From IMG/VR virus record IMGVR_UViG_2671180604_000001, positions 10,331 to 74,330 of that record: a stretch of 64,000 nt of DNA; one strand, written 5' to 3'. Each line of letters begins with the position of its first letter. Position 1 is the first letter of the stretch. The notes beneath the pieces are model-generated. The model made no database searches. It was not told the origin of the DNA and was given only the letters and a program-made list of their open reading frames with translations. This document shows positions 8,198 to 52,454 of this stretch, piece by piece. The DNA comes from a virus. Taxonomy: Duplodnaviria > Caudoviricetes. Made by a program: the position numbers and the translations under genes.

Positions 8198-8237
8198 TGG
8201 AACAATCGCTTTTTTCAAATAGCTGTAATGTCAAAAT
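8198..8237 (+). promoter_or_regulatory. Putative late promoter
   Basis: TGGAAC-N29-AAAAT; hairpin 8233-8264 covers the RBS. Confidence 0.7.
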
Positions 8238-8267
8238 CATCCTATGTAAAAATAGGGTGATTTTTTT

Positions 8268-10328
8268 ATGTCTGAATTTAAGAGTGGTCTACAGTACGAC
8301 GAACTTGGTTTTTTAATAGGGCTAAAGCAATCAAGTCGTGACGTATCAAAAATAGATAAGAACGTGGAGCAAATCCGCGATATTTTACTTAGTTTAGGGA
8401 AAGAGATAGAGAGTCAGTACTCAAGAGCTGAGAACGAACCAAGACCAAAATTAAGCGCATTAGAACAAGCACTCATTGATGCCCAGATTAAACCAGCTGA
8501 TTTTTCTGATCTAATCCGTGAACAAGCAAATCCATTGGTTCAATCCTCATTAGCTTTAGATCGAGCTGCTAAATCAATTGAAGACTTGATAGCTGAATCA
8601 AGAAAATCTGACGATAACAATGCTCAACCTAAAGCAAAGCCTAAACGCCGTGCGATTGAAATTAATAGCACTGAAGACGTTATAAGAGAATTTGGTAATA
8701 ACGATCGCCAACGTGATGCAAACGGGCGATATGTTGGTTCTAGTTCCGAACAAACAACTTTGAGTAAAGTTACACAGACTATTGGGACCGCAATTAAGGG
8801 TGTATTACCTTCAAATCCACAGGGTGTTGACCCAACGCTTGACGCTATTAATGAAGTTGCGACTGTACTATCACCAGTGAAGCGAGCAGCTGGATTTATG
8901 CTGCGTCCGCTTACTGGTTGGATGAAGTCGCGAAAACGCAATGAACCATTGCCAAAAGAACAGAGTGACCATAATCGTAAGCTGATCAAAGTACTAGAAA
9001 AGATTGCTGCAAACAATGGAGGTGGATTATTTGGTCTATTGAAAATACTACCATTAGCATTAGCTGGCTTAGGTTCAACTGTGGCTGCTGCTGTTGCTGG
9101 TTTAGGACCAATTTTAGCAACCGCCCTTGCTGGTGCAGTTGGTGCTTATTTGGGTAGTAAAATTCATGATAAGTTAGATGAAACTGAAACTGGGCAAGCC
9201 GTTAATGAATTTATAGGTAATGCAGCAGCTCGAACTCTTGCTTCACTAGGTAATGATGCAGCGAAAGAAGTCGTAGAGGCACATGATAAAGCTGACGATG
9301 CCGAACGTTATAAGTCTAGAAAAGAAAATCCAGCATGGTACTCAAATGATGGCGTATATCGCTTTGCACGTAAACTTGGTGTCCAACGTTACATGAAAGA
9401 AAATACACCTGGTTCGATGCTCTACCAAAAACAATACGGTGGACAGGGTGTTAATGGTAATGAGGTAGCACAGTTTGGAGCTGCTGCAAGTTCAGGAAAA
9501 TTAGTTGGAAACAATACGGCTGAAAAAACTTTGGCTTTAATTCGTAAACATGAAGGTTACAAAGAAAAAGCATATTGGGATGTCAATGCCTATAGAGTTG
9601 GGTATGGAAGTGATACTTTGACTGATAAAAATGGAAAAATTACTTCTGTAAATAAAACTTCGACTACTGATAGGAAAGGTGCTGAAAGAGATTTAGTCCG
9701 CCGATCTAAAATATTTGCTAATGAAGCACGAGAAAAAGTCGGAGCGGAAAATTGGGATAAATTACCCGATGATACAAAGGCAGCCTTAACATCGGTTGCT
9801 TATAACTATGGTTCATTGCCGAAAAAAGTAGTGAAGGCAGTTCAAACAAATGATATCAGTCAAATTTCAGAATCTGTTCGAAGTTTAGAGTCTCACAATG
9901 ATGGGATCAATAAAAATCGTAGAAACGATGAAGCTAATATCATCAAGAACTCAATTATAAGAGAACCCAATAAATATGCAGATTCAAAAGGTAAAAGAAC
10001 AGAATCTCACCCAGAACAAAAAGTAACGCAAATTAGTAATGCTGCTGAACTTTTAAAGCAAAAATCTAAAATGAATCAGCCATTATTAAATTTAAAAACT
10101 CCAGTAACACCAACTGCTACTCGTACAAGTAATTTTGGATCGAGTTATATTCAACCAAAAACTGAAACTACAATCCAGCCTGCAAAAGAGTTTTTAACCT
10201 CACCGAAACCACAGGAAGTAGTTGTTAAGAATCAAAATAATGGTACTATCAATCAAAATGTGAGCAATCGATTGCTTGCTCATGCAATAACTGGCGGCTT
10301 AGGAATGGGGGATAAATGGAACGTTTAA
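8268..10328 (+). CDS. Tape measure / injection protein with lysozyme (GH24-like) domain
   Basis: Helical N-terminus, Gly/Ala-rich hydrophobic middle, IRKHEGY..KAYWD...VGYG and AALTSVAYNYG lysozyme motifs. Confidence 0.75.
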   Translation: MSEFKSGLQYDELGFLIGLKQSSRDVSKIDKNVEQIRDILLSLGKEIESQYSRAENEPRPKLSALEQALIDAQIKPADFSDLIREQANPLVQSSLALDRAAKSIEDLIAESRKSDDNNAQPKAKPKRRAIEINSTEDVIREFGNNDRQRDANGRYVGSSSEQTTLSKVTQTIGTAIKGVLPSNPQGVDPTLDAINEVATVLSPVKRAAGFMLRPLTGWMKSRKRNEPLPKEQSDHNRKLIKVLEKIAANNGGGLFGLLKILPLALAGLGSTVAAAVAGLGPILATALAGAVGAYLGSKIHDKLDETETGQAVNEFIGNAAARTLASLGNDAAKEVVEAHDKADDAERYKSRKENPAWYSNDGVYRFARKLGVQRYMKENTPGSMLYQKQYGGQGVNGNEVAQFGAAASSGKLVGNNTAEKTLALIRKHEGYKEKAYWDVNAYRVGYGSDTLTDKNGKITSVNKTSTTDRKGAERDLVRRSKIFANEAREKVGAENWDKLPDDTKAALTSVAYNYGSLPKKVVKAVQTNDISQISESVRSLESHNDGINKNRRNDEANIIKNSIIREPNKYADSKGKRTESHPEQKVTQISNAAELLKQKSKMNQPLLNLKTPVTPTATRTSNFGSSYIQPKTETTIQPAKEFLTSPKPQEVVVKNQNNGTINQNVSNRLLAHAITGGLGMGDKWNV

Positions 10329-10705
10329 TATTGTGTTTTTTATTCATATTTTTCAGCATTAATGTTCATGCAGATATGGTGGGATGTAAAGGATTATCAA
10401 AACAATCAGATTTGAATAATTGTGCTAATAATTTTTTAGCTAAAACCAATGAAAAGCTTAATAAAGTTTATTCAAATTATTTGTCTGACTTGACACCTGA
10501 TGAGCAATCCAAACTTAAAGAATCTCAAAAAATATGGGGGCAATTTAAAGATAAAGATTGTGCATTTGAATCTTCTCCAGTTAAGAAAGGTTCAATGTAT
10601 CCTTATGTTTTATCTTCGTGTTTAGTAAATCGTAATGAAATAAGAATAGTTGAGCTTGAGAATATGATGTCATGTAAAAACGGGACTGAGCCAAGCTGTA
10701 TATAA
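10316..10705 (+). CDS. lprI: Lysozyme inhibitor LprI family (DUF1311) secreted protein
   Basis: Signal peptide, C....Q.DLN.CA...L...Y...L..SQ..W..F...DC pattern. Confidence 0.8.
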   Translation: MERLILCFLFIFFSINVHADMVGCKGLSKQSDLNNCANNFLAKTNEKLNKVYSNYLSDLTPDEQSKLKESQKIWGQFKDKDCAFESSPVKKGSMYPYVLSSCLVNRNEIRIVELENMMSCKNGTEPSCI

Positions 10706-10707
10706 GT

Positions 10708-10776
10708 ATAGGCAATAAATTATTGGCTCATGCAATATCAGGTGGATTGGGTATGGGGGGGAAATGGAATGGTTAA
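10708..10776 (+). pseudogene. Orphan remnant of the tape-measure gene 3' end
   Basis: Translates IGNKLLAHAISGGLGMGGKWNG* versus VSNRLLAHAITGGLGMGDKWNV* at 10260-10328 (16/22 identical). Confidence 0.85.
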
Positions 10777-12063: not shown

Positions 12064-12103
12064 CTGAAGAATATTTACTTAATATTTTAATTTGGGGGGA
12101 TAT

Positions 12104-12852: not shown

Positions 12853-12863
12853 TTTCCTTTCAT

Positions 12864-13280: not shown

Positions 13281-13302
13281 AGTATGAAAGGATGATAACT
13301 TC

Positions 13303-13680: not shown

Positions 13681-14637
13681 CTAATCTATGTTTAAAAAAA
13701 CTTTAACAGGTGCAACAGACTTTAAAGGATCCTCCTCTTGCGGAACATGCCCCAAATTTTCAAATTTCACAAGTTGACTTTCATTAATGTCTTTGTGGAA
13801 TTGATCTGCATACGCAACTGGGATCAAATTATCCTTTTCTCCCCAAAGAATTAAAGTAGGTTGGTTAATCAATTTAATCAGTTTGGAGTCTTTACTGCTA
13901 TTAGGTATTTGTTTAAAGCGTTGTATCAATGCATGACGATTCCCAGCACGCAATGTAAGGTCATAATAACGATCTACTAATTCAACAGTAACTTTATTCG
14001 GATCAGCGTAAACATTTCGTACGCTAGATTCAACCATCTTACGTGGCAAGGTGTACTCCATTATTTTGTTCAATAATGGGATTTTGGCAATTCTAAAACC
14101 AATTGGCATCGACTTAGAATTATCAGGATATCCTACCGCATCTACTAAAATGAGCTTATTTATTCGTAATGGTTGTTTAAGAGCCGTATGCCACGCTAAT
14201 GCTCCTCCGAATGAATTTCCTACTAATACGTATTGTTGAATTTCCATAATATCCAAAAATTCTTCTAAAAATTCGACATAGTGATCCATTGTATAATTGT
14301 CATCGGGAAATGGACCTGTGAGTCCAAAACCAGGTAAATCCAAGCGAATGATCCGCCGTTGATGTTTGAGATTTTGAGTCCAACCTTCCCAAGTGTGTAG
14401 GCTAGAAGATGTTCCATGCAATAACACAATGGGATTCGGATCGTCACGAGGACCTTCATCACGGAAGTGTACATTCATTTTATCTACCATGACGAAATTT
14501 GATGGAGGGGTTCCCCATTTTGATTTTAGGTCGGTTAATGGTATGTCACTCGTACAACCCGTCATTGTAATAATTAGAACCATTGAGAGCATCATAGTAA
14601 TACCCGATCCGAAATAGTATCGTTTGAGTGCTTGCAT
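13681..14637 (-). CDS. Alpha/beta hydrolase, probable lipoprotein
   Basis: LLHG, DLPGFG, GNSFGG nucleophile elbow, GHVPQEE; TMTGC lipobox-like sequence. Confidence 0.9.
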   Translation of the reverse strand: MQALKRYYFGSGITMMLSMVLIITMTGCTSDIPLTDLKSKWGTPPSNFVMVDKMNVHFRDEGPRDDPNPIVLLHGTSSSLHTWEGWTQNLKHQRRIIRLDLPGFGLTGPFPDDNYTMDHYVEFLEEFLDIMEIQQYVLVGNSFGGALAWHTALKQPLRINKLILVDAVGYPDNSKSMPIGFRIAKIPLLNKIMEYTLPRKMVESSVRNVYADPNKVTVELVDRYYDLTLRAGNRHALIQRFKQIPNSSKDSKLIKLINQPTLILWGEKDNLIPVAYADQFHKDINESQLVKFENLGHVPQEEDPLKSVAPVKVFLNID

Positions 14638-14679
14638 GACTATACTCCGTGTGATTTAGGTGAAATTAACTAGGTTGGT

Positions 14680-15492
14680 TTAATTCATTTGATTAGCTCG
14701 ATGACTAATGGAAAACTTACGCGCGATTTTAGTTGCACCTGTCAATTTTTGAGCTAAAAAGTTCATAGTTGGCGAGAAGTACGCTAGATGTATCCCCAAA
14801 TCGAGAATAAAGCTCATTACATTAACAGATGCTAGATTTTTTTTGATAGCTCGAACAACCGCTAGAGCTACTTCATTTGAGGTGCTGCTAGGTGTACCAA
14901 ATGGTAAAATGACACCACTATCGGCAATCATGCCTGCATCACGAATAGGTCCTGGATAGATGGTGGATACGCCCACACCAGTTCCATGTAAATCCATTCG
15001 AATACAATCAGCAAATCCGCGTAAACCATATTTGCTAGAACTATATAAAGATGACAATGAAGAAGGCATTTTCCCTGAGATTGAACTAACAAAAAGTAAA
15101 TGTCCATGTCCACGTTCAACCATTTGTGGCATCAATCCTCTTGCTAATAAAATAGGTGCTCTTAAATTAACAGTCAGGCAATTATCAATTTCTTGCTTTG
15201 AACAAGCTGTAATATCGTCGATACCAGGTAAGCCTGCATTGGCAATTAGAATGTCTACTTTACCCACTTCAGATAAAAGTCTTTCTAAATCTTCATCGCA
15301 ACTTAAATCAGCAGCAATGAAAGATACGTCGTCAGCTGTACCACCTAGTTCCTTAGCAAATTGGGATAAGTTGGTTGTATTTCGACCACTTAAGATCAGT
15401 TGTGCTCCTTGAATCTTTAATTCGCGTGCGATCGCCATTCCAATCCCACCTGTAGCTCCAGTAAGTAATACTCGTTTACCATTAATATCCAT
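14680..15492 (-). CDS. Short-chain dehydrogenase/reductase
   Basis: TGATGGIG, ANAG, YSSSK motifs. Confidence 0.92.
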   Translation of the reverse strand: MDINGKRVLLTGATGGIGMAIARELKIQGAQLILSGRNTTNLSQFAKELGGTADDVSFIAADLSCDEDLERLLSEVGKVDILIANAGLPGIDDITACSKQEIDNCLTVNLRAPILLARGLMPQMVERGHGHLLFVSSISGKMPSSLSSLYSSSKYGLRGFADCIRMDLHGTGVGVSTIYPGPIRDAGMIADSGVILPFGTPSSTSNEVALAVVRAIKKNLASVNVMSFILDLGIHLAYFSPTMNFLAQKLTGATKIARKFSISHRANQMN

Positions 15493-15812
15493 ATATGACT
15501 CCTACGTGTTCATATTTCGGGTTGTGCTAAAAATTATTATTTACCTTCGTCTTTTTAATCGTTGAATTCTCAAGAATGTTTGTCAGATCAAGAAAATTCA
15601 AGAAAGGAATTATCTTTAATCTTATGAATCTTAGAATTGATTCAATAGTGATGGCGATAAGTCTCATTTCTTTAGATAGATACTCTAGGAATAAATTAAA
15701 CGAGTCGTTAGAATGTCAAACAGCGTAAAAGTTGTATTGTTCTAAAATGCATTTTGATTGTGATTTCACGCAAAGGTGTTAGGAAATTAAAACTCAAATT
15801 AGTAAAGGAAGT

Positions 15813-16799
15813 GTGAGCTCAGTCTATGTAAGAGCTTTGCTGGACTATCTGATAAATATTGGAATTGATCCAAAAAATCTTTTTGATAATGATCTCATCT
15901 CAGCCATCCATGCTCAAGATCGACGTATTTCTATTCCTGATTGGCAAAGGATGTTTGAAAAATCGATTGCGTTTACTAATGATTCGAATCTCCCGCTTAA
16001 AGTTGCTGAAATTCAAGAACCACGTTATTTAGGTATGCTTGGATTTGCCGCTATGAGTAGCCGAACACTCGGAGATGCAATTTCGATACTTGTCCGATTT
16101 GAACAATTGGTAGATGATGTTAATAGCGTACATTTAGTTGAAAAAAATCACCTTATAGAACTGCATTGGATACCACTATCTGCATCCTCACCGATTTTTA
16201 TGCAACTTTCTTTAGCTTGCTGGATAATTTTAGCCAGAATATTAACCAAACAGCCTACACTAGAGTGTGAAGCACATTTTAGCTTTAAAAAACCATTGAA
16301 TCTTGAAGCCTATTATAGAATATTTGGAGATGCAGTGAGTTTTGAAGCAGAATCAACAAAATTAGTTTTCGATAAATCTTGGTTGAATTTACCTATTACT
16401 CTTTTTGATTCAGTGACCAATCATTTGTTAATAGGTCAAGCTGAAGAAATGCTACGAACAAAGAATCAACCAGATTTTTTAAAAGACTTAAATCGCTATC
16501 TTTCTGCAAACCTAGCAACTAATCAGGTAACAATTTCCGAAGCTGCGAATGCTTTAAACCTTACCCCGCGAACACTGCAATTTAAACTACATGAACTAGG
16601 TTTAGGTTATAGAACACTCCTTGAAAAAATTCGACATGAACATGCAGAACGTTATCTCAAACATACGGATTTAACGTTAAATGAAATTTCTTTTTTATTA
16701 GGTTACTTAGAGCAAAGTTCTTTTCAAAATGCCTTTAAACGTTGGACTGGTAAATCTCCAGGAAGCTTTCGTAAAAGTTTTGAGATATTTAAGCAATAA
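15813..16799 (+). CDS. AraC-family transcriptional regulator
   Basis: C-terminal double HTH (ISFLLGY.EQSSF..AFKRWTG.SP); divergent from the SDR/hydrolase genes. Confidence 0.92.
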   Translation: MSSVYVRALLDYLINIGIDPKNLFDNDLISAIHAQDRRISIPDWQRMFEKSIAFTNDSNLPLKVAEIQEPRYLGMLGFAAMSSRTLGDAISILVRFEQLVDDVNSVHLVEKNHLIELHWIPLSASSPIFMQLSLACWIILARILTKQPTLECEAHFSFKKPLNLEAYYRIFGDAVSFEAESTKLVFDKSWLNLPITLFDSVTNHLLIGQAEEMLRTKNQPDFLKDLNRYLSANLATNQVTISEAANALNLTPRTLQFKLHELGLGYRTLLEKIRHEHAERYLKHTDLTLNEISFLLGYLEQSSFQNAFKRWTGKSPGSFRKSFEIFKQ

Positions 16800-16943: not shown

Positions 16944-16966
16944 GGGATGAACTGATTTAAGTTGGA
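16944..16966 (+). repeat. 23-bp direct repeat, copy 2
   Basis: Identical to 13544-13566; runs into the TGGAAC box. Confidence 0.9.
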
Positions 16967-17003
16967 ACAGCCATACTTAAAAGAGATTATATTACTTCAA
17001 AAT
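16963..17003 (+). promoter_or_regulatory. Putative late promoter
   Basis: TGGAAC-N30-AAAAT. Confidence 0.65.
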
Positions 17004-17558: not shown

Positions 17559-17585
17559 AAAAAGACTACTTCGGTAGTCTTTTTT
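17559..17585 (+). terminator. Rho-independent terminator
   Basis: AAAAAGACTAC-TTCG-GTAGTCTTTTTT. Confidence 0.85.
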
Positions 17586-17587
17586 AA

Positions 17588-17628
17588 TGGAACAAGAATA
17601 AAAAGTAACAGGTTCAAAGCAATAACCT
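17588..17628 (+). promoter_or_regulatory. Putative late promoter
   Basis: TGGAAC-N29-TAACCT. Confidence 0.5.
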
Positions 17629-20910: not shown

Positions 20911-20951
20911 TGGAACTCAAGAAAACTAAGTGAACTTAGCAATGGTTTTAT
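20911..20951 (+). promoter_or_regulatory. Putative late promoter (weak -10)
   Basis: TGGAAC box followed by long hairpin 20940-20983. Confidence 0.45.
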
Positions 20952-20996
20952 GTAGTTGTTTGATGAAACAACATAAACCATTGTTAGGATTTATAC

Positions 20997-21407
20997 ATGA
21001 CTCAAGATAATACTGAGGAATTTGCATTAACAACAAATGTTGGTAGTGATGGTGATCTTCTAGTAGAGCAGTTCTTAGGCTTTGCAAAACACGATATTAG
21101 CGATGAAGATTTCGAAAAACTACTCGCTGGTCAATCTGTAGAAGACGTAACAGCCTATAAACCTGCAACCTATTACAAGATTTCAGCCGATCCAAATTCA
21201 CCAGACTACAACGAACCATTCGACATTCACATCCACTTCCAAGATGGACCAACATTGATCGACGGTGTAAACGGTGCAACTAATGAATCGTTATTAAAGA
21301 TCCTGATTCATCGCACTCAATACCTAGACAGTAAATTCCCATCAGACCAGTACAAACAAGCCATTGCATCTATGGAATCGGCTTTAAGTAACTTAAAAAG
21401 TATTTAA
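20997..21407 (+). CDS. Tad1/Acb2-hairpin-like protein, divergent
   Basis: IHFQDGP...GVNG..NE.LL.ILI.R...L...FP......AI...E.AL pattern. Confidence 0.55.
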   Translation: MTQDNTEEFALTTNVGSDGDLLVEQFLGFAKHDISDEDFEKLLAGQSVEDVTAYKPATYYKISADPNSPDYNEPFDIHIHFQDGPTLIDGVNGATNESLLKILIHRTQYLDSKFPSDQYKQAIASMESALSNLKSI

Positions 21408-21610: not shown

Positions 21611-22918
21611 ATGAAAAAAATTTCAATATGTATTTTATTAACTTTGATAACTATTAATCCAGTAAAAACTAACAGTGAGCCTGTGACAATTATCACATCT
21701 ATTGTTGGTTCTGCATCTGTTGGGGCTACTTTGCAAGGTATATCTGGTTTAGTGGAAGATTCAATTGATAAAGCACAGAATACAGGTGATTATTTATTAT
21801 TTAAAAGTGCTACAGAGCTGAAAAGCGTGATATCAACATGGGAAAGTGCTAACCAGAATTTGTTAGATAAAACTTTTAATGAGTTAAATGAATCACAAAG
21901 AATATTTTTTAATAACATCAATGCCACTGCTAATCAATTAAACTCAAATGTTGAGAATCACTTGGAAACAGCAACAAGAATTGCTGAACTCGCAAATCAA
22001 AGTGTGCAAGATATTAGAATTTTTGATGGAGGATTAGGACTTTTTAGATATTCGCCCAGAATTGTATATTCAGGTATACCAGAGGATGTTACTTTTATAA
22101 TTAGAGGAGTTAACTTTGATAAAGCTGATCCAAAACTGATACTACCCTCTGGTGGTAATGCAAACAGAGTTTCATTAACTAGGCAAGAAGCAGTATTTGT
22201 ATTTAGCAAAGATGAATTTAAGTTTAATGATATTAAAGCTGAATTCACAAATTTGAAACTTGAATATTTAGCACCATCAGATTCGGTATTCGGAAAAATT
22301 AAGGATACTTTTAGGGGAAGAAAAACCATTAAGTCCGCTAATATCTCTATTTTACAGTTACCAAATAATCTTGGTAATTATTCACTAACTTATAAAACTA
22401 AAGAAAGTCATAAAGAAATTTGGAGTGGCGAGAGACAATTTCATCATTCTGGAAGAAACTCAAGCGCTACTTTCAACCAAGGACCTCATGATAATAATTG
22501 GAAAATGATAATTTCATCTTTAGGGAAAGCTAGAGAATGGGGACGTGCTGGTAAAGGTTGTAGTGTAGTTACAAATAATGAATATGGATTTTCAATAAAA
22601 ATTCAAGTTGGAGTAATTAGAGAGTTGTTCAATCCTAATGCACCTGGCTATCAACATTGTATTTATAGATGGCAAGAATTTAGGGAGTATCAACAGGAAA
22701 AGGAATTTCCTGAATTAAATGGTAGATTGAAATGGGAAATTGATTCAGCTATAGCGTTACCTGAAAATTTAAAGTCTTTTAAACTCAATATTAGCACTTG
22801 GGATGGAAAGACTAGGGTATTTAACGGTTCTGCGAGCGAAACATTTTATAAAATTGATGAATCAAAGGATTTATTAATTATCAAACCCCAAATTCCTAAA
22901 GATTTAAATTCCTTTTAG
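21611..22918 (+). CDS. Hypothetical exported protein (moron)
   Basis: Signal-peptide-like N-terminus, helical then beta-rich; AT-rich with its own upstream region. Confidence 0.7.
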   Translation: MKKISICILLTLITINPVKTNSEPVTIITSIVGSASVGATLQGISGLVEDSIDKAQNTGDYLLFKSATELKSVISTWESANQNLLDKTFNELNESQRIFFNNINATANQLNSNVENHLETATRIAELANQSVQDIRIFDGGLGLFRYSPRIVYSGIPEDVTFIIRGVNFDKADPKLILPSGGNANRVSLTRQEAVFVFSKDEFKFNDIKAEFTNLKLEYLAPSDSVFGKIKDTFRGRKTIKSANISILQLPNNLGNYSLTYKTKESHKEIWSGERQFHHSGRNSSATFNQGPHDNNWKMIISSLGKAREWGRAGKGCSVVTNNEYGFSIKIQVGVIRELFNPNAPGYQHCIYRWQEFREYQQEKEFPELNGRLKWEIDSAIALPENLKSFKLNISTWDGKTRVFNGSASETFYKIDESKDLLIIKPQIPKDLNSF

Positions 22919-22924: not shown

Positions 22925-22964
22925 TGGAACATATAGAAATAAGAATATTTTAATTTGCAAAAAT
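22925..22964 (+). promoter_or_regulatory. Putative late promoter
   Basis: TGGAAC-N29-AAAAT; hairpin 22965-22991. Confidence 0.7.
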
Positions 22965-22996
22965 AGCCCTAATACACAATCTATTGGGGCTTTTTC

Positions 22997-27236: not shown

Positions 27237-27277
27237 TGGAACTGAACGCTTAAGAAGCGGTTCTAAAATACCAAAAT
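27237..27277 (+). promoter_or_regulatory. Putative late promoter
   Basis: TGGAAC-N30-AAAAT; 11-bp perfect stem 27275-27311 pairs with the start codon. Confidence 0.72.
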
Positions 27278-27302
27278 AGCCATAGTGATAAATAGGTGAT
27301 CT

Positions 27303-28850
27303 ATGGCTATTCAGTTTTACTTAACCAGTGCAGGGAAAAATGCAGCACTCAATGCTGCTAGTCTCGGTTTAAATGTTTCATTGACGCATATCGCCGTTGG
27401 TACAGGTAAATATGATCCATCAAATGCAATGACTCTAACTAATACTTCACTAGTTTCAGAACTTGAGCGATATCCGCTAAATGGTGGGAGTGTTGAACCT
27501 ATTTCACATACATTAAGATTTGTTGCGAATTTAGAACCGAGTCTAACAGCAGATGCTTTTGAAATAGGACTTATCACTGATCAAGGTGTTTTATTTGCTG
27601 TCGCTGCGACAACTTCAAATACACCATTGATTCGATTGGTTGCGAATATTGTTGCAATCGTCACTTTTGGGATGATCTTATCAAATCTCAATCTTAGTAA
27701 TTTAATTATTAATGTTGATCCAAATACGCCTATATCAGTTGCCTTGATGAATCAGCATCTTGACTCTGTTGATCCACATCCACAATACGCAACGAAATCA
27801 CTGGTTCATAGTCTTATAGATTTGAATGTGGATAACGCAGTTGACTATTTAGTCTCTTTATTAAACCTACATCAGACTGGAATAAATCCACATCCTCAAT
27901 ACTTGTTAGCTTCAACTTTTGGCGTTGATTTGCAAATGAAAGCAAGTGTAAACACGCCAATTACAGAAGAAAACTGTGTTTTCGGGTGGAATGGAGAAAG
28001 TGGTGCGACGGCTGCATTTCATAAAACACCGAAATGGTGGGTAACTCATGATGAAACGGTAACATTTAAGCCATTCCGTGCGTATGGTCAGTTTTTATTA
28101 AACATCCAATTTCAACCAGAGGGTGACGGCACTTTAGCAATTGCGATCTTCAATAAAGATGACGTTAAGATTGCAGAGGACACAATATTAAGTGTTAGCT
28201 CCACTAGTTTTAATCAATTGGTGAAGCATGTTTTCTATCTCAATAAGGGTGAATATGCAAAAGTTAGAATTTATGGACGAGTATGGAATGAGAATTGGGC
28301 ACACTTTAGTGGGTCAATATATGTTGATGATCGAGTAAAAGTCTTTAGTCCAGTCGGTTTTCAATCTACCGTTGATTTTGCAAATACGATAGAAGATGGC
28401 TCAGTATCTGTTGAAACACCACTTGATTACTCAACCTTTTCAAGTTCTGAATGGTCATATTTCGATAGTGGTTCAGAGCTGAATGTGGCACTTAGTGCTA
28501 GTACAACATTTGCAACACCTGAATCTCATACTCCACATTATCACCGTGCACTATTTACTACTAATCCAAATACAGAATTATGGATTGTTATCGAAGTCGG
28601 AAAACAATTAGTCGAAACACCAAGTGATTATGCAGCTGTAGAAGCGAAAGTGATTCGTGGTTCTACTGATGTAAGTGGCAATATCGTCATTCAAATACCA
28701 TTTTCGATGCGTACTGTTGCTACTCCGAATAATGAAACGTTGATTTATCGCGTTGCTTACTATTTAGCAGCAGTTACTAAAACACTCGCTGATCCTTTTC
28801 CTTCCGGCAATATTGATGGAATTCATGAGTTCTTTGCGGAGTTGTCGTGA
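27303..28850 (+). CDS. Tail fibre protein (tail-collar N-terminal domain)
   Basis: LT.AG..A...THIAVG.G, EIGL...G.LFA, two (D/N)PHPQY motifs. Confidence 0.8.
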   Translation: MAIQFYLTSAGKNAALNAASLGLNVSLTHIAVGTGKYDPSNAMTLTNTSLVSELERYPLNGGSVEPISHTLRFVANLEPSLTADAFEIGLITDQGVLFAVAATTSNTPLIRLVANIVAIVTFGMILSNLNLSNLIINVDPNTPISVALMNQHLDSVDPHPQYATKSLVHSLIDLNVDNAVDYLVSLLNLHQTGINPHPQYLLASTFGVDLQMKASVNTPITEENCVFGWNGESGATAAFHKTPKWWVTHDETVTFKPFRAYGQFLLNIQFQPEGDGTLAIAIFNKDDVKIAEDTILSVSSTSFNQLVKHVFYLNKGEYAKVRIYGRVWNENWAHFSGSIYVDDRVKVFSPVGFQSTVDFANTIEDGSVSVETPLDYSTFSSSEWSYFDSGSELNVALSASTTFATPESHTPHYHRALFTTNPNTELWIVIEVGKQLVETPSDYAAVEAKVIRGSTDVSGNIVIQIPFSMRTVATPNNETLIYRVAYYLAAVTKTLADPFPSGNIDGIHEFFAELS

Positions 28851-32788: not shown

Positions 32789-32864
32789 ACTTTAATTTTT
32801 TTTAAGAAAGCTCATCGATGTATGGGCTTTTTTTACATCTGAATAAGTCAAATTAAATAGCAAT

Positions 32865-32904
32865 TGGAACTGAACAAAATCAGGAATTTTCTACATGCGA
32901 AATT
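32865..32904 (+). promoter_or_regulatory. Putative late promoter (capsid)
   Basis: TGGAAC-N28-GAAATT. Confidence 0.6.
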
Positions 32905-35656: not shown

Positions 35657-35683
35657 AAAACTCTGCTAAATGCAGAGTTTTTT
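35657..35683 (+). terminator. Rho-independent terminator
   Basis: AAAACTCTGC-TAAAT-GCAGAGTTTTTT. Confidence 0.75.
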
Positions 35684-35688
35684 CATAT

Positions 35689-35728
35689 TGGAACATAAGA
35701 GATTTTAAATAAACCACAAGTGCAAAAT
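35689..35728 (+). promoter_or_regulatory. Putative late promoter
   Basis: TGGAAC-N29-AAAAT. Confidence 0.7.
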
Positions 35729-38154: not shown

Positions 38155-38214
38155 TTGACATTCTAATTAATCATACTAATATAAGTGTATTACAAAATAG
38201 TTTGTAATACACTT
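38155..38214 (+). promoter_or_regulatory. Sigma70 promoter with 14-bp inverted-repeat operator
   Basis: TTGACA-N16-TAATAT, then AAGTGTATTACAAA-ATAG-TTTGTAATACACTT. Confidence 0.7.
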
Positions 38215-38903
38215 TGGTGCGTACTATGGTTATGAAAAAGCAAAATCGTCCATTAAGTTTACGAATTGACGATTCACAGCAACCTTATATCGATCTTTTA
38301 AACCGAGCAAGCTTGTCTACAAGTGAGGGTATTCGAATGTTAATTGAGCGTTCTTTAAATCAAATTAATCAAATTGATTTATCAAATTTTAATGTAAATA
38401 TCGAATTTAATTGGAATAAAACTTCCAATAATTCATTTCCAGAAAATGTTGGGTGTTTGCGCGTTAATGTTACACCACCGCAAAATCTGAGTAATGAAGA
38501 CTTACACAGAATCGTTTTTTTGATTCCTGAGTTTTTAAAAAGTAATGCCACCAATAGCAGTGAATATGAGCCGTTTCGTATAGATTCATATTATTTTCAT
38601 AGAGCAACTAATGGAAGAGTTGGATTCGAAAGTACGAAAGTACGTAGAAATACACTGGGATTTAGATTAATTGATAACAAATGGAGAGCTGGAATTTTTT
38701 ATTATGATTTCAATGAAATTGATTTAAAAGCTTTAGAAACTGAAATAACGCAACGCTTAAAAGAGCATATTGAATCATCGATTATTCTTTTTATGATTGG
38801 GCAATTATCTGTAGAAAGGGTTCTAAAGGATGATGAACTAAAAACTTTTAATTCGATTACATATAAACACAATATTGAAGCAAGTGATCTGTCTTTTGAA
38901 TAA
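38214..38903 (+). CDS. Ribbon-helix-helix protein with uncharacterised C-terminal domain (moron; true start probably a few codons downstream)
   Basis: LSLRIDD...STSEGIRMLI RHH pattern. Confidence 0.6.
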   Translation: MVRTMVMKKQNRPLSLRIDDSQQPYIDLLNRASLSTSEGIRMLIERSLNQINQIDLSNFNVNIEFNWNKTSNNSFPENVGCLRVNVTPPQNLSNEDLHRIVFLIPEFLKSNATNSSEYEPFRIDSYYFHRATNGRVGFESTKVRRNTLGFRLIDNKWRAGIFYYDFNEIDLKALETEITQRLKEHIESSIILFMIGQLSVERVLKDDELKTFNSITYKHNIEASDLSFE

Positions 38904-38957: not shown

Positions 38958-38997
38958 CGGAACACTTTAATTTTTGAAATTATTTAGCATTCATAAT
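38958..38997 (+). promoter_or_regulatory. Putative late promoter
   Basis: CGGAAC-N28-CATAAT; CATAATT pairs with AATTATG at the start codon. Confidence 0.62.
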
Positions 38998-39024
38998 TGA
39001 TGTATCTATTAAGATTTGAGAATT

Positions 39025-39675
39025 ATGATGCGTCAAGTCAATCCAATGCTTTTAAATCAAATGAAAGCTGACTCAATAGCTATTCAGCAACTTGGTTCAC
39101 CGATATTGTCCTGTCAAGGTATGTTGGTTCCTCGTGGTTTGGAAGATTACCGTTTTTTAATTAAAAGCTGCCCACGCCCGATTATAAGCAATGAAGATCC
39201 AGCTGAAGTTCAATTCCCTGGTGGATTTACTGGGATTGTGGCTGGACCTCCAAAAACACATTACACAGGGAATTTACAACTCTTGGTCACTGAAGCTGGC
39301 CATGATCAACTTTTCGCTGAATATGTAGTAGCTAGTAAGGGAATAATTGATTGCGATTATTATGATGGGCATTTAAAAAGTTTTACACGAGCTTATGCGC
39401 TTGAAAACTGTGCTATTCGTTTTGAAATGGCTGAGTATGATACAGATAGTCGTTCGCAAGTCATGACTGTTTCTTGTCCTATCGATTTTAACTTTTTTGG
39501 TGGCTTCGCAAATATTGGTAGTAATGGCACTGTATTACCAGGTCTAAAACAAATTGAAGGGGTAGAAGATTTAATTAGCAGAGTTCAAAGTGTAGTGAAT
39601 ACTGCTCAAGCTGTTACTGGTTTAGCTGGGGCAGCTACAGGTCTTACTCGTCAAATTGGTTCGTTATTTGGGTAA
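39025..39675 (+). CDS. Tail tube-like protein
   Basis: Beta-rich, size and context. Confidence 0.5.
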   Translation: MMRQVNPMLLNQMKADSIAIQQLGSPILSCQGMLVPRGLEDYRFLIKSCPRPIISNEDPAEVQFPGGFTGIVAGPPKTHYTGNLQLLVTEAGHDQLFAEYVVASKGIIDCDYYDGHLKSFTRAYALENCAIRFEMAEYDTDSRSQVMTVSCPIDFNFFGGFANIGSNGTVLPGLKQIEGVEDLISRVQSVVNTAQAVTGLAGAATGLTRQIGSLFG

Positions 39676-41023: not shown

Positions 41024-41545
41024 GTGGCGATGATGAATGGTTTCAAAAAAGCCAAAATCTTGAGTTACGATGCGCAAGGCAGAACTGCAAAGATTCATAT
41101 ACCAGGTCTTACAGATGGAGCTAGTAATGGATTAACAGCTACTTTTGCCTATCCCGTAGGTGATAGCGACAAAGATACTGAACGCGAAATCTTAGAGGGT
41201 GAGGATGTATATATCTTCTTTGAAAATAATGAACAATCGCGTCCTGTCATCGCCTTTTACAGTAGTCATAGCAAAGAAGCTGTAGTTGACATTCGCCGTA
41301 TTAGACAAGAAAACATTGAAATATTGGCAAGAACAGAAATTACTATGGATGCACCAACTATCCATTTAAAAGGAAAAGTGATAATTGACGGGGATATTGT
41401 CCACACAGGTGATCAAACTACGACAGGGACTATTTCAGCGACTGATGATGTTATTGCAGCAGGTATTTCAGGTAAATCGCATCCTCATACTGGTGTTAGA
41501 GGCGGAACAGATAATAGTGGTCCGCCGTTACCATCTGGAACTTGA
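41024..41545 (+). CDS. Baseplate spike (GpV/gp45-like)
   Basis: OB-fold N-terminus, beta-helix, apex motif GIS...HPHTGV. Confidence 0.8.
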   Translation: MAMMNGFKKAKILSYDAQGRTAKIHIPGLTDGASNGLTATFAYPVGDSDKDTEREILEGEDVYIFFENNEQSRPVIAFYSSHSKEAVVDIRRIRQENIEILARTEITMDAPTIHLKGKVIIDGDIVHTGDQTTTGTISATDDVIAAGISGKSHPHTGVRGGTDNSGPPLPSGT

Positions 41546-41576
41546 TTGATATATCAAACTTATAACAAGCCAAAAT
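41536..41576 (+). promoter_or_regulatory. Putative late promoter (portal)
   Basis: TGGAAC-N30-AAAAT. Confidence 0.65.
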
Positions 41577-43979: not shown

Positions 43980-45038
43980 ATGAAAGTAATAAATATAAAT
44001 GAATTGTCTAATATTTTAGAGCATTCTGATGATTTTACTAAGGAGTTAAGTAAGTATGTAGATGTTGTATATACAGATGATGGTTTTGATTTTGTACCTA
44101 AGGGAAATTTGAAAGTAATTGATGATGATGGTACAGAAATATATAATTTTGAAAATTCACTAATGTTGAAGGACAGAAGAGGATTCGTTTTAAATACTAA
44201 TTCTCAATGGACCTTGGCATCAAAAAGTATATTTAAAAATTCAGCATTTAAAGGAGTATTTAATCCTTTTAAAGATTTTATTATAGATATAGAAAGAAAA
44301 AATAGAATTAAAAAATTCTACTCAAAGAAAAAAAGCGGTAATTACAATAGGATAGTAATTTCATGTGGTGATTCTTGGCTACAGCATCCTTTAAATAAAG
44401 ATATTATCGATGCATTGGAAGAATCCGATAATGATTATGCAATATACTGCATAGCACGTGCTGGAAAAGAGTTACGAGAAATAATTAACGAAAAAGAGTT
44501 TATTTCTCCTCTAAAAACTGAAAAAGCTAGTGCATTTATATTTAGTGCAGGAGGTAATGATATATTAGATGATGTATCCCTATTTGTTCATAATTTTGAT
44601 GTAAATAAATCACCTAGAGAACATTTAAATCAAGACTATTTTAATAAACTTGATCAGTTGAAATATTGGTATAAAGAGGTTTTCTTGAGTGTCATTCAAT
44701 ACAGTAAATCAATCGATAAAATAATTGTACATAGTTATGATTATCCAATACCTGTAAGCCACAATGATGGGCGATCTGGAAATTGGATTGGAAAAAAGTT
44801 AGACGAAAAGCGTAATATTAAAGATAGATCTTTACAAAAGAAAATTATTACAGAGGTGATTAATGATATTTATGCAATATTGCATGAATTATCTACATCG
44901 AAAGAGTTTTTGGATAAAATAATTCTATTAGATTTTAGAGGGAAATTCACTAAAGCATCAGAATGGTTTGATGAAATTCACCCGAATAAGTCTAGTAATA
45001 AAATTCTGGCTAATATTATTGCAAATCAAATTTCTTAA
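43980..45038 (+). CDS. SGNH/GDSL hydrolase (moron)
   Basis: GDSW, SAGGND, DEIHP blocks; no signal peptide. Confidence 0.85.
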   Translation: MKVININELSNILEHSDDFTKELSKYVDVVYTDDGFDFVPKGNLKVIDDDGTEIYNFENSLMLKDRRGFVLNTNSQWTLASKSIFKNSAFKGVFNPFKDFIIDIERKNRIKKFYSKKKSGNYNRIVISCGDSWLQHPLNKDIIDALEESDNDYAIYCIARAGKELREIINEKEFISPLKTEKASAFIFSAGGNDILDDVSLFVHNFDVNKSPREHLNQDYFNKLDQLKYWYKEVFLSVIQYSKSIDKIIVHSYDYPIPVSHNDGRSGNWIGKKLDEKRNIKDRSLQKKIITEVINDIYAILHELSTSKEFLDKIILLDFRGKFTKASEWFDEIHPNKSSNKILANIIANQIS

Positions 45039-45053: not shown

Positions 45054-45094
45054 TGGAACTAGTCAGGTTTCTTAAACTTTCATAATGAAATAAT
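45054..45094 (+). promoter_or_regulatory. Putative late promoter
   Basis: TGGAAC-N30-ATAAT; hairpin 45095-45121 covers the GAGG RBS. Confidence 0.7.
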
Positions 45095-45129
45095 TGCCTC
45101 AATCAGAAAAATATTGAGGCATTTTTTAA

Positions 45130-47044: not shown

Positions 47045-47362
47045 ATGAATGGCTTAGAGAAGTTAAAACTTACGAAAGAATTACGTACTTTACTTGAGCA
47101 GATCCCGAATCTAAAAGGAATGGAGAAACTTCAAAGCGCTAAGCGATTACGTGAACTGCTTGAGTTGCTTGGTGGAAAGTCTAATGAGGCCGTGAATAAG
47201 CTGTTTCAGTCTATCATTGACGGTGATGTCAAAGTTTCTGTTGAGCTACTACAAAATGTTCGTAGTGAAGCCGAGAAAAACTTAGATGACCCACTATTAC
47301 TTGAGGCGGTAAATGTCTTGATAGCTCAAGTTAATGAGATAGTTGGAACTGAGCAAGCTTAG
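47045..47362 (+). CDS. Small helical protein of the Dar-like cluster
   Basis: Internal repeat GLEKL..TK.LR.LL / GMEKL..AK.LR.LL. Confidence 0.65.
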   Translation: MNGLEKLKLTKELRTLLEQIPNLKGMEKLQSAKRLRELLELLGGKSNEAVNKLFQSIIDGDVKVSVELLQNVRSEAEKNLDDPLLLEAVNVLIAQVNEIVGTEQA

Positions 47363-47384
47363 ACAAGCAATAAGCTTTCAAAAT
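47344..47384 (+). promoter_or_regulatory. Putative late promoter
   Basis: TGGAAC-N30-AAAAT; hairpin 47380-47405. Confidence 0.68.
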
Positions 47385-47419
47385 AGTCCTTAAATGGGCT
47401 ATTTTTTTGAGTTTTATCT

Positions 47420-50248: not shown

Positions 50249-50274
50249 TCAAAAAATATTGTAGCAATCTTCAT

Positions 50275-50326
50275 TATGTTTTAGATCAACATTGGGGGGA
50301 TTTCTCCCATGTTGATCTAAAACATA
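50275..50326. other. Long hairpin, 18-bp perfect arms
   Basis: TATGTTTTAGATCAACAT-N16-ATGTTGATCTAAAACATA with inner GGGA-TTTC-TCCC. Confidence 0.8.
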
Positions 50327-50415
50327 CTTATTATAGCTAAATATTATTTAAAATATTGAATTGAAACAATATGTTCTGATATATTCTTGATGTATGTAAA
50401 TAGGTTAAATTTTTT

Positions 50416-51579
50416 ATGAAATTAATGTCGAGAAAACAAAGGAAATATTTTAAAAATATTCGCCATTATCGTTTCTTAGCTATTCAAAAGCCAAATAAAC
50501 AAAAAAGAAGAGAAAGAGATGTATCAAAAGCTAGAAAAAAAAGAAATAAGCTGAAACTAGCTTCTGAACGTATTAATATTTATTTAAAAATGCCTACAAA
50601 TGTAACGATTATCACGAGAAAAATACGTGGTGAGTTGATTAAAATTACAAGAAGGTTTAGAGAGTTTTATCATCGTACTAATATTTGCCTGAATTTAGAT
50701 TTTTCAGATACCAAGAAGATGTTTGCTGATGGCACTCTATACTTCTTAGCAGAACTTGACTCATTAATTATTCTGAATAAAGACATTACTTTTAAAATCA
50801 CATTTTCTAATGAAAAAATTGTAAATCAAGTTCTTGAACAAACAGGAATTCTTAAACTATTAAATAAAAAAATGAAATTTGATGATGAAGAGTTTGACGA
50901 TACTGTGAAGTATTGGAATTATGCTTCTGGACACAATTCTGAAATTGATTCAGCAGATTCTATGTTAGATGATTTCGATCAAATTCTTGCTTCTACAACG
51001 AGTCGAGATGTATTTACTGTATTAACTGAAGCTTTAACTAATTGTCATCAACATGCTTATATTGAAAAACGTTTTCCAACTGCTCCAAAATCAATAAAAA
51101 AATGGTGGCTCTTTTCTGAGATTAGAGAAGATAAGTTAACAGTATGTGTATGTGATTTAGGGGTGGGGATTCCTAACTCTTTAAAAGTTGACTCACCAGA
51201 CGTACAGCAAAATTGGTTTCAGGTACTCAAAGATTTCTTAGCTAAACATAAAGTTAAGAATGATTTTGATGGAGCAGCAATCAAGGCAGCTATTGAAATT
51301 TCTAATACAAGGACCAATTTACCAAATAGAGGTAAAGGGCTTAATCAGATCATCAACAAAGTTAATACAATTAGTGACGAAAAGGTGTCTGTGGCAATTT
51401 ACAGCAATAAAGGTTCCTATATAATTAATAGAGGACTTGTGACAGACTTGGAAAAAACAGGTATTGTTGACGGAATTTCTATTCCGTACAAGGAATCTAT
51501 TGAAGGTACGTTAATTGTTTGGAGTATACCTTTAGATAAGCAACCAAATAACCAAGATTTGGTGGTGTCAGATGAGTAA
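50416..51579 (+). CDS. STAS-like + histidine-kinase-like ATPase protein
   Basis: EALTNC..HAY (N box), DLGVGIP (G1), RGKGL (G2); basic N-terminus. Confidence 0.8.
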   Translation: MKLMSRKQRKYFKNIRHYRFLAIQKPNKQKRRERDVSKARKKRNKLKLASERINIYLKMPTNVTIITRKIRGELIKITRRFREFYHRTNICLNLDFSDTKKMFADGTLYFLAELDSLIILNKDITFKITFSNEKIVNQVLEQTGILKLLNKKMKFDDEEFDDTVKYWNYASGHNSEIDSADSMLDDFDQILASTTSRDVFTVLTEALTNCHQHAYIEKRFPTAPKSIKKWWLFSEIREDKLTVCVCDLGVGIPNSLKVDSPDVQQNWFQVLKDFLAKHKVKNDFDGAAIKAAIEISNTRTNLPNRGKGLNQIINKVNTISDEKVSVAIYSNKGSYIINRGLVTDLEKTGIVDGISIPYKESIEGTLIVWSIPLDKQPNNQDLVVSDE

Positions 51580-51910
51580 AAATGTAATGAAAATCAATGT
51601 AGCATCAGATTTCTCGAAGAATCCGTCTGGGCGTTATATTTTAGATGGTAAAACATCTGGCGAAGCATTTTTAAAAAATGTTTTGTTACCTGCCGTGAAA
51701 ACGCATGATTTTGTCGAAATAAATTTTGATGGTGTACGTGGATATGGTTCATCCTTTCTAGAAGAGGCGTTCGGTGGTTTTATTCGTGAAACCAAGATGT
51801 CTGTTGCAGATTTTTTTAAGAAAATTAAAATTATTTCTCAAGACCCTTTTTTATTAATCGAAATTAAGGAATATCTTGAGGATGAGTCTAAAAGGATATT
51901 GTCTGCTTAA
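51572..51910 (+). CDS. STAS-like domain protein (DUF4325-type)
   Basis: P.GR...DG..SGE.F, I.FDG..GYGSSFLEEAFGG. Confidence 0.85.
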   Translation: MSKNVMKINVASDFSKNPSGRYILDGKTSGEAFLKNVLLPAVKTHDFVEINFDGVRGYGSSFLEEAFGGFIRETKMSVADFFKKIKIISQDPFLLIEIKEYLEDESKRILSA

Positions 51911-52374
51911 TGGCTCCTTGGATTAAAGACTCTATATTACCTTTTCTACCTTCACTACTCACTATCTTAGGGTGGTGGATAGTTGGTAGAAGGGATGGTA
52001 TTGGTAAGAAAAAAGAAGCCCATAATCGAAGAGTAAACTTAGCTATTGAGCAGTCTCAAAAAATTTATGAATCTGCAAAAAAATTCTATCTTTTATCTGG
52101 TTCAGCTCCAGAAGCTTCTGCGTTAGAAGATATGTTAAATTGCGACTTTAGAAGACTGAGCACGATCCTTGGTCTTGTAAACAAAAGCTTAATTTCTGAA
52201 AATCAAAAGCAATCGATAGGTAATTCATTCATCGAATATAAAAAAGTAGTTACTGGTGGGCAATTTGGTACAAGATCTAGAAATGCATACCCCTTGAACC
52301 ATCTGCTTTTTGTAGAAATAGATAATACTTATAATGATTTTTTTCTAGAACTTGAAAAAATTATGCAGATTTAG
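51910..52374 (+). CDS. Hypothetical protein with N-terminal TM segment
   Basis: Translationally coupled to the STAS gene. Confidence 0.7.
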   Translation: MAPWIKDSILPFLPSLLTILGWWIVGRRDGIGKKKEAHNRRVNLAIEQSQKIYESAKKFYLLSGSAPEASALEDMLNCDFRRLSTILGLVNKSLISENQKQSIGNSFIEYKKVVTGGQFGTRSRNAYPLNHLLFVEIDNTYNDFFLELEKIMQI

Positions 52375-52384
52375 TGATTATCAT

Positions 52385-52423
52385 TGGAACTCAGAAATAG
52401 TTCACTTTTAAAATATTTAAAAT
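52385..52423 (+). promoter_or_regulatory. Putative late promoter
   Basis: TGGAAC-N28-AAAAT; hairpin 52419-52448. Confidence 0.68.
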
Positions 52424-52454
52424 AGCTCTATTAACCTAGGGCTATTTTCATTTC

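Follow-up and report, generated by a model that had tools for sequence, protein, structure and literature searches.

In bacteriophage T4, whose late promoters are of the gp55 type (TATAAATA), the late transcripts of certain genes start inside an RNA helix. For e, soc, 49 and I-TevI, a review passage describes long transcripts derived from upstream in which the Shine-Dalgarno sequence or the AUG is sequestered in a helix, lysozyme synthesis being cut 100-fold (PMC3014915). Passages on the PeSL cassettes of phages RB49 and phi1 describe strong early sigma-70 promoters with stem-loops, mostly located between the -35 and -10 elements or overlapping the -10; these stem-loops contain G-T pairs and were proposed (and in one case tested) to terminate upstream transcription, and the cassettes, which end in a Shine-Dalgarno sequence and an ATG, flank variable ORFans, recombine and mediate ORFan shuffling (Arbiol et al. 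2010, PMC2839356). In the corresponding passages on phages P1 and Mu, P1 probably encodes antiterminators and has an inverted repeat as its late box (PMC10695390), and the Mu C-dependent late promoters bind the activator C at -43.5 and have a -10 and no -35 (PMC2582627). Here we analyse a stretch of 64,000 nucleotides of a Caudoviricetes virus (IMG/VR record IMGVR_UViG_2671180604_000001, bases 10331-74330 of one 74,330-bp contig; hereafter the window), in which most late promoters probably carry a built-in hairpin, so that, in a model using a predicted start site, the RNA read through from upstream would be stopped or silenced and the RNA started at the promoter would escape. All promoter features are given in window positions and lie on the + strand.

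The stems are part of a bipartite late promoter, TGGAAC-N29-cAAAAT, which appears not to have been described before. The pattern TGGAACN{28,30}AAAAT is found 10 times in the window, always on the + (gene) strand, against 0.34 occurrences expected. Relatives were taken from IMG/VR as loci surrounding either terminase homologues (80) or DarB-like homologues (79), which together with Acinetobacter phage vB_AbaM_ABMM1 make 160 loci. The window and these loci contain 1470 gene-strand TGGAAC sites, reduced to 554 unique contexts, 277 intergenic-like contexts and 157 clusters, and the folding statistics were calculated on 121 non-redundant promoter contexts with the hexamer box. Of the 157 clusters, which were not selected for a second box, 70% have a hexamer carrying A at position 2 and T at position 6 that begins at N=29 after TGGAAC and 14% have one at N=28, and at N=29 a match to TATAAT at four or more of six positions is found in 58% of them. 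The position matrix of the contexts corresponds to cAAAATAGCCnTA. Relatives swap CAAAAT for AATAAT or CATAAT, keeping the two critical -10 positions, and at box+11 an A is present in 79% of the 121 contexts and a C in 0%, while no conservation is seen in them at the expected -35 position. The TGGAAC and cAAAAT elements persist at promoters without a hairpin (35689, 55295). We read these data as an activator-dependent promoter, in which TGGAAC would be centred near -44.5, cAAAAT would be the -10 and the conserved A the predicted +1. In the 41536 family of the ABMM1-like clade (L136, L135, L148 and similar loci), an inverted copy precedes TGGAAC (GGTTCCA-N8-TGGAACC), which suggests that the TGGAAC factor may be able to bind a dyad at some promoters.

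This organization is close to that of the Mu C/Mor promoters as the Mu passage presents them, with a -10 in the absence of a -35 and an activator site at -43.5 in Mu and at a deduced -44.5 here, whereas the Mu site is a 16-bp dyad and TGGAAC is mostly a single non-palindromic half-site; no match to the Mor/C family was obtained among 64 proteins scanned against Pfam. As in the P1 passage, related virion genes are distributed in many short late units, each with its own activator-dependent promoter having a -10 without a -35, but in P1 the box, a 9-bp inverted repeat centred on the -22 region, lies 4-10 nt before the -10 (five promoters, AF234172.1 annotation), compared with TGGAAC at 29 nt here. 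A tblastn search of the genome found no homologue of P1 Lpa (best E-value 2.5). At LP23, the late promoter of the P1 capsid gene (L002:8800-8850, minus strand), a hairpin begins from the last -10 bases, with a minimum free energy (MFE) of -12.0 kcal/mol and a z-score of -3.3, and no strong structure is present at the -10 of the other four of the five P1 late promoters examined. The resemblance to the PeSL cassettes, within what those passages cover, lies in the compact order of stop codon, promoter, stem-loop, Shine-Dalgarno sequence and ATG, in the stem placed over the -10, in the G-T pairs and in the position of the cassettes at variable flanks or mosaic joints. In contrast, the PeSL promoters belong to virulent phages and are of the early sigma-70 type, having a -35, an AT-rich region upstream and a stem of variable position (five subclasses) with polyG then polyC, whereas the promoters studied here would be of a late activator type without -35 in a temperate phage, with a single phasing and the C-rich arm first. 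A PeSL-type early sigma-70 promoter is thus not matched, since the -35 is not conserved, TGGAAC lies 29 nt before the -10 and virion and lysis genes are served. Our literature search yielded neither a description of this promoter or its hairpins nor a regulatory analysis of the phage family, and the ABMM1 paper, supplements not covered, contains 0 mentions of promoter, terminator or hairpin.

The sequence-only reading of the window had listed eight stems over late -10 regions, and all eight were found. They start 23-35 nt past TGGAAC (CGGAAC at 38958), and seven of them fold better than 200 dinucleotide shuffles made for each stem, with MFE z-scores of -3.76 to -6.83 and only 0-2/200 shuffles folding equally well. 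The proposal that the 5' arm overlaps a -10-like hexamer held for seven stems, in which CAAAAT, AAAAAT, CATAAT, AATAAT or TAAAAT is found 27-29 nt after (T/C)GGAAC, and failed for the stem at 20940, which has no canonical hexamer at such a spacing. Upstream of the gene 8268-10328, the TGGAAC box (8198..8203) is followed by CAAAAT (8232..8237; predicted +1 at 8244, A) and by a 13-bp hairpin (8233..8264; -14.6 kcal/mol, z -6.83) with the Shine-Dalgarno sequence GGGTGA in its 3' arm, then by a T-run and the ATG at 8268. The box of the gene 20997-21407 (20911..20916) precedes a long hairpin (20940..20983; -14.2 kcal/mol, z -3.79) without canonical -10 at N28-30 and without T-run, which is kept, as judged by eye, in 7/7 relatives. 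For the gene starting at 22997, the box (22925..22930) and AAAAAT (22959..22964; predicted +1 at 22971, A) are followed by a 10-bp hairpin (22965..22991; -12.2 kcal/mol) with GGGGCT and the Shine-Dalgarno sequence in the 3' arm, then by TTTTT and the ATG. The tail-fibre gene (27303) has its box at 27237..27242, CAAAAT at 27272..27277 (predicted +1 at 27284, A) and a hairpin (27275..27311; -13.9 kcal/mol, z -4.07) with, as claimed, 11 perfect pairs and the start codon in the 3' arm; having no U-tract, it would act by occlusion only. In the same 27237 family, a two-tier hairpin is observed in the ABMM1-like clade (L016:12024-12070 and similar loci), with an outer 9-bp stem formed between the -10 region (AGCCATAAC) and the region of the start codon (GTTATGGCT) and an inner stem pairing ACCATA with the Shine-Dalgarno region, when the clade of the window has a single stem onto the ATG.

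The four remaining stems lie farther downstream. The tail-tube gene (39025) is preceded by the CGGAAC variant box (38958..38963) and by a stem of 7+4 pairs (38992..39027; -5.6 kcal/mol) that includes CATAAT and the ATG. Upstream of the DarA-like gene (45130), the box (45054..45059) and AATAAT (45089..45094; predicted +1 at 45101, A) precede a 9-bp hairpin (45095..45121; -10.5 kcal/mol, z -3.76) that covers GAGG in its 3' arm, in agreement with the earlier claim, and is followed by TTTTTT. The box of the DarB-like gene (47420) lies within the end of the ORF (open reading frame) 47045-47362 (47344..47349) and is followed by CAAAAT (47379..47384; predicted +1 near 47391-47392) and by a 10-bp hairpin (47380..47405; -10.7 kcal/mol, z -6.04) and T7; because the Shine-Dalgarno sequence and the ATG are beyond this stem, it can only be a terminator. 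Finally, the PmgG-like head gene (52455) has its box at 52385..52390, TAAAAT at 52418..52423 (predicted +1 at 52430, A) and a 12-bp hairpin (52419..52448; -12.0 kcal/mol, z -3.90) with TAGGGC and the Shine-Dalgarno sequence in the 3' arm, for which relatives show compensatory changes. The T-runs that had been noted after several stems are those of 8233, 22965, 45095 and 47380, and these four stems (4/8) have by eye the form of an intrinsic terminator. The general claim that the stems either hide the ribosome-binding site or start codon or terminate transcription was borne out in silico as to burial at 8233, 22965, 45095 and 52419, where the Shine-Dalgarno sequence is within the 3' arm, and at 27275, where the ATG is, but not at 47380.

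The position of the hairpin relative to the promoter is tightly defined in the 121 contexts. In the MFE structures of 170-nt read-through RNAs, pairing opens at box positions 0-12 with a frequency of 0.46-0.69, positions 14-18 are mostly unpaired and pairing closes at positions 20-28 with a frequency of 0.58-0.74, shuffles giving about 0.25 throughout. A 45-nt segment at the box folds with a mean energy of -8.9 kcal/mol, compared with -4.0 in shuffles, and reaches -8 or lower in 56% versus 12% of cases. The 5' arm, at box positions 0-12, corresponds to the hexamer box plus about 7 nt, the loop occupies positions 13-18, and the 3' arm, at positions 19-30, contains the Shine-Dalgarno sequence, often with a U-tract. 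When only contexts with 7 or more Watson-Crick pairs are taken (83), the start of the 5' arm falls within -3 to +6 of the box in 80 of them, and in none is it found at +11 or beyond. The hexamer lies in the 5' arm and the conserved A at hexamer+7, from which a start inside the helix, as in T4, would be predicted. An RNA starting at box+11 would retain at most 4 paired arm nucleotides in 65/72 strong hairpins, and the predicted late leader of strong hairpins, with a start 7 nt after the hexamer, has a median length of 23 nt. In the 68 contexts with an identifiable start codon, the mean leader MFE passes from -13.25 in the read-through RNA to -1.7 in the late RNA and the unpaired fraction from the Shine-Dalgarno sequence to the AUG from 0.27 to 0.50, this accessibility being increased in 63/68 contexts and by at least 0.15 in 51. 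At the seven hexamer sites of the window, the predicted start cuts off 6-11 of the 9-14 arm nucleotides and the leader MFE, between -5 and -15 in the read-through RNA, is between 0 and -1.3 in the late RNA. The comparison of long and short leaders called for in the sequence-only reading thus gives, in the model, a read-through RNA that folds and a late leader that is nearly unstructured, and the suggestion that a late transcript would lack part of the 5' arm agrees with a start 7 nt past the hexamer, which would drop most of it. Escape of the late transcript from the hairpin would follow from the identification of the -10 within the 5' arm, with the start taken at hexamer+7.

This escape depends on where transcription starts, and a different geometry has to be considered. 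A weak -10 placed 4-6 nt after TGGAAC, in the manner of the -22-box geometry of P1, could make late transcription start before the stem, the hairpin being then either a leader attenuator that needs an antiterminator, with cAAAAT as a transcribed -10-like pause element comparable to that of lambdoid PR', or a 5' stabiliser. Such a geometry is allowed by the A2/T6 hexamers at N=4-6, which occur in 22-27% of the 157 clusters per offset, an enrichment of about 2.5-fold; the early region is lambdoid-like, with a helix-turn-helix (HTH) gene in the place of Q directly after RusA, and the P1 passage gives antiterminators as probable in that phage (PMC10695390). However, the signal at N=4-6 is divided among three offsets, with matches to TATAAT at four or more of six positions in 5-15% of clusters against 58% at N=29, the hairpin-less promoters still keep the box, virion genes that are highly expressed would have their Shine-Dalgarno sequence buried by a hairpin in the leader, and an antiterminated polymerase would need no set of about 15 promoters. 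Since an upstream start also gives no reason for the exclusion between hairpins and terminators reported below, we regard it as unlikely.

The main reason to think that the hairpin acts on RNA arriving from upstream is its mutual exclusion with upstream terminators. In the 29 contexts where a conventional terminator with a T-run is located just before TGGAAC, 6 hairpins are strong and 23 are weak, whereas in the 92 contexts without upstream terminator 66 are strong and 26 are weak (odds ratio 0.10, Fisher p = 1.9e-6, a value that overstates independence since the contexts are related sequences). When the contexts are grouped by downstream gene into 24 families, eight families with at least 2 members are of the hairpin type in at least 75% of their members, and an upstream terminator is present in 3/15 members of one of them and in none of the other seven. 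Conversely, five families (35689, 55295 and three more) have strong hairpins in 0/5, 0/5, 1/5, 0/2 and 0/2 members and an upstream terminator in 5/5, 5/5, 3/5, 2/2 and 2/2, respectively; three families are mixed, and the 32865-type family has neither a hairpin nor a terminator within the 40 nt examined. In the window, conventional terminators are located at 17559-17585, abutting the TGGAAC at 17588 (17559..17593; weak promoter hairpin only), at 32807-32834, before the TGGAAC at 32865 and GAAATT (32807..32904; weak hairpin), at 35657-35683, before the TGGAAC at 35689 and CAAAAT at 35723-35728 (35657..35728; no promoter hairpin), and at 55265-55289, before the TGGAAC at 55295 and CAAAAT at 55329-55334 of the lysis genes (55265..55334; no hairpin, MFE 0.0). 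These four promoters, with a weak or absent hairpin and a conventional terminator before TGGAAC instead, contradict the idea of the sequence-only reading that the hairpins form a genome-wide insulator. Two further late promoters with CAAAAT have weak hairpins, one upstream of the Hdf-like gene 17032 (16963..17003), where relatives have a strong and covarying hairpin, and one upstream of the portal gene (41536..41576), overlapping the end of the ORF 41024-41545. From the exclusion, the hairpin appears to do the terminator's job on read-through RNA. Since at least 5 T are present in the 8 nt past the last G/C pair in 35/72 strong hairpins and the 3' arm of 50/69 contains a triplet resembling a Shine-Dalgarno sequence, termination and burial of the ribosome site are both plausible effects and often coincide.

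The exclusion is also what would be expected if the stems were ordinary intrinsic terminators or 3'-end stabilisers of the upstream units, overlapping the promoter for want of intergenic space and having no regulatory meaning. The stems share with the conventional terminators of this genome the form of an A-tract, GC core and U-tract, and the junctions of the window measure 57-91 nt when of the hairpin type compared with 102-155 nt when a terminator precedes the promoter. But a terminator 3' of the -10 would stop the promoter's own transcripts unless they start inside it, so that the overlap would not be neutral; the tight phasing is found across about 12 gene families, and 37/72 strong hairpins have no U-tract and yet cover the Shine-Dalgarno sequence or the AUG, as at 27275. 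This explanation is in our opinion improbable.

Selection on the stems appears to be exerted at the level of the gene-strand RNA. In the 83 stems with at least 7 Watson-Crick pairs, 45 internal non-Watson-Crick oppositions are G.T or T.G and 1 is A.C or C.A, and because this asymmetry is unexpected for a cruciform or a protein-bound palindrome, we conclude from the sequences that selection acts on a gene-strand RNA hairpin. In the alignment of the 16963 family (A1, 22 sequences), 92.3% of the cells are paired, compared with 44-54% when the partner is slid, 5/13 pairs are changed on both sides, and 0/500 shuffles reach the paired fraction, the double-change cells or the covariation score, these shuffle counts not being probabilities since the sequences are related. 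The 52385 family (A2, 24 sequences) gives a similar result, with 85.6% paired versus 45-54% slid and 4/13 pairs changed on both sides. The alignment of the 45054 family (A4) was left out, its clades being out of register, and no Rfam family was matched at gathering score. A DNA cruciform or a palindromic protein site was rejected on the 45:1 ratio of G.T to A.C oppositions. Taken more broadly, a role of the inverted repeats as DNA (cruciform or dimeric-protein site at the -10) or only as recombination homology patches is very improbable: although the P1 late box is itself an inverted repeat according to its passage (PMC10695390), the cassettes are mosaic boundaries and the PeSL passages report recombining cassettes (PMC2839356), the arm sequences vary between sites while pairing is kept, the 45:1 ratio fits a gene-strand RNA and not duplex DNA, and recombination could be added to the RNA function but not replace it.

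Taken together, these data are best explained by the following mechanism, in essence that of the sequence-only reading, which we hold to be somewhat more likely than not. The sequences show the motif, its phasing, the selection on gene-strand RNA, the covariation in two of three families, the exclusion with upstream terminators and the predicted difference in structure between long and short RNAs, and from these we infer the start site, the activator, the benefit and the fact of termination or occlusion. The virion and lysis genes would be split into about 15 units, each with its own activator-type promoter having TGGAAC near -44.5, no -35, cAAAAT 29 nt downstream and a start at the conserved A 7 nt past the hexamer. 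For the majority of units, the -10 hexamer together with about 7 nt after it would double as the 5' arm of an RNA hairpin; the 3' arm would contain the Shine-Dalgarno sequence or the AUG, with a U-tract after it in about half of the cases. A read-through RNA, holding both arms, would fold and be terminated or have its ribosome site buried, whereas a promoter-started RNA would begin at the end of the 5' arm, form no hairpin and be translated from a short open leader (median 23 nt); in the hairpin-less units, an ordinary terminator immediately before TGGAAC would take this role. The benefit would be that the virion genes are kept silent while upstream cargo or earlier units are transcribed.

Besides the hexamers at N=4-6 and the relatedness of the contexts, several observations weigh against this mechanism. 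The stem 38992-39027, for which pairing with the ATG had been claimed, does include the ATG but is not above chance (z -1.44, 18/200 shuffles folding equally well) and is poorly kept in relatives. The terminator scan flags only 3/8 stems (8233, 22965 and 47380), and its totals (9, 14, 13) are not above its own shuffles; more generally, the totals of the simple terminator and promoter scans do not exceed shuffles, and stems with 9-nt loops are missed by them. A strict rule by which the hairpin is found only where no terminator precedes was rejected, 6/29 contexts holding both, and a terminator 3' of the -10 leaves the promoter DNA itself unshielded from an incoming polymerase. Among the seven hexamer sites of the window, the gain in accessibility from the Shine-Dalgarno sequence to the AUG is clear at 3 (8233, 22965 and 52419) and absent or reversed at 4. 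Finally, the covariation predicted for homologous prophages was obtained in two families (16963 and 52385) and not in a third, since the 22925 family (A3, 12 sequences) is 96.6% paired by conservation and wobble and its covariation is not above shuffles (240/500).

The precedent in T4 that the sequence-only reading had invoked for e, soc and 49 is confirmed by the review passage, and the likeness with e, soc, 49 and I-TevI lies in the sequestration of the Shine-Dalgarno sequence or the AUG in the read-through RNA, predicted in silico here. The difference is that in T4 a few genes are concerned and the control is translational only, whereas here the arrangement would be the default of most late units, about half of the hairpins being terminator-like, with a start that is a prediction only. 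The logic is thus common to the PeSL and T4 cases, and what differs here is the late activator-type class of the promoter, the temperate lifestyle, the single fixed phasing and its use as default for most late units. Our results provide a late-promoter consensus and a transcription-unit map for a large family of Acinetobacter prophages, with at least 159 distinct IMG/VR loci and ABMM1, and they indicate that the T4 start-inside-helix trick and the PeSL terminator-in-promoter idea can be the default late-gene architecture of a temperate phage. If true, this would explain the tolerance of cargo genes between virion operons and would offer a compact promoter-plus-insulator part of about 70 nt for genetic design.

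The PHROG matches of the window proteins include P1-type virion genes (baseplate, sheath, tube, portal, large terminase, PmgG-like, DarA-, DarB- and Hdf-like), as well as an endolysin and an integrase, and the 10 kb 5' of the window encode a CI-like repressor, replication genes, a methylase and RusA. Among named phages, the nearest is Acinetobacter phage vB_AbaM_ABMM1, with ~71% nucleotide identity over 48% of a 7.7-kb query. This gene content and similarity identify the element as a temperate myovirus of Acinetobacter, lambdoid-like in its early arm and P1-like in its late arm. A pattern scan of genome contigs for taxonomic breadth gave scattered, apparently chance matches, with one Acinetobacter record among the matches listed. 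Directly 3' of RusA, an HTH-like protein is encoded at 47..676 (+), followed by a 286-aa protein encoded at 679-1539. Both are kept in ABMM1 in unchanged order, with identities of 48% (47-676) and 62% (679-1539), and both are late-activator candidates by position only. Family and PDB searches with these two proteins gave nothing above threshold; the protein of 47-676 has sub-threshold HTH_3 matches and weak 434-repressor-like PDB matches. A TGGAAC palindrome (TGGAAC-AG-TTCCA) is present beside repeated CCAACATTGGAAC units at L162:6420-6500 (genome bases about 6420-6500), within an HTH_36/DnaD-like replication gene 3.8-3.9 kb before the window; it may represent an origin or iterons, or else another site at which the TGGAAC-binding factor acts.

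The sequence-only reading had linked the hairpins to read-through from upstream morons. Variable cargo is indeed found just upstream of many cassettes, but the link is not specific for morons: four stems follow the genes 21611-22918, 38214-38903, 43980-45038 and 50416-52374, and the other four (8233, 20940, 27275 and 47380) follow virion or late-type genes. No PHROG function, no PADLOC match and no Pfam match above the gathering cut-off, except DUF4325, was obtained for these cargo-like genes, and sigma-70-like matches lie in front of some such genes. We compared the 300-nt flank 5' of TGGAAC in close relatives whose downstream protein is at least 70% identical. This flank is non-homologous at 16963 (7/7), 22925 (6/6), 38958 (20/20), 45054 (11/11), 52385 (8/8) and 55295 (5/5), and conserved at 32865 (5/5) and 47344 (3/3). 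Non-homologous flanks in close relatives indicate that variable cargo has been inserted right before many cassettes, which would therefore mark mosaic joints for cargo exchange. It is possible, and we propose it tentatively, that TGGAAC-N29-cAAAAT-hairpin-Shine-Dalgarno is a portable self-insulating late-promoter module in which the -10 doubles as the A-tract of an A/U-tract terminator. The insulator at the 5' edge of each virion-gene unit would then allow any cargo gene to be inserted upstream and expressed in the lysogen without the virion genes, and the cassettes would serve as recombination joints shuffling cargo among Acinetobacter prophages; such a module would be the temperate late-promoter counterpart of the PeSL, with the HTH protein after RusA as a possible activator.

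Several other gene arrangements were noted in the window. The three-gene insert 50416-52374, located between late units and preceded by a long hairpin, encodes a protein with a weak sub-threshold HATPase_c_2-like match, a DUF4325 (STAS-like) protein and a 154-aa ORF, with no PADLOC match. Another cargo block (13681-16799), also between late units, has an AraC-family regulator on the + strand and, adjoining it on the opposite strand, genes for an esterase/lipase and a FabG-like reductase. At 2369-5745, the regulatory genes are separated from the late region by a pair of genes encoding an AAA ATPase (386 aa) and a subtilase-family protease (737 aa), possibly a cargo or defence-like module. At 8268-10705, a 686-aa protein with a phage-lysozyme domain is directly followed by a homologue of LprI, a lysozyme inhibitor.

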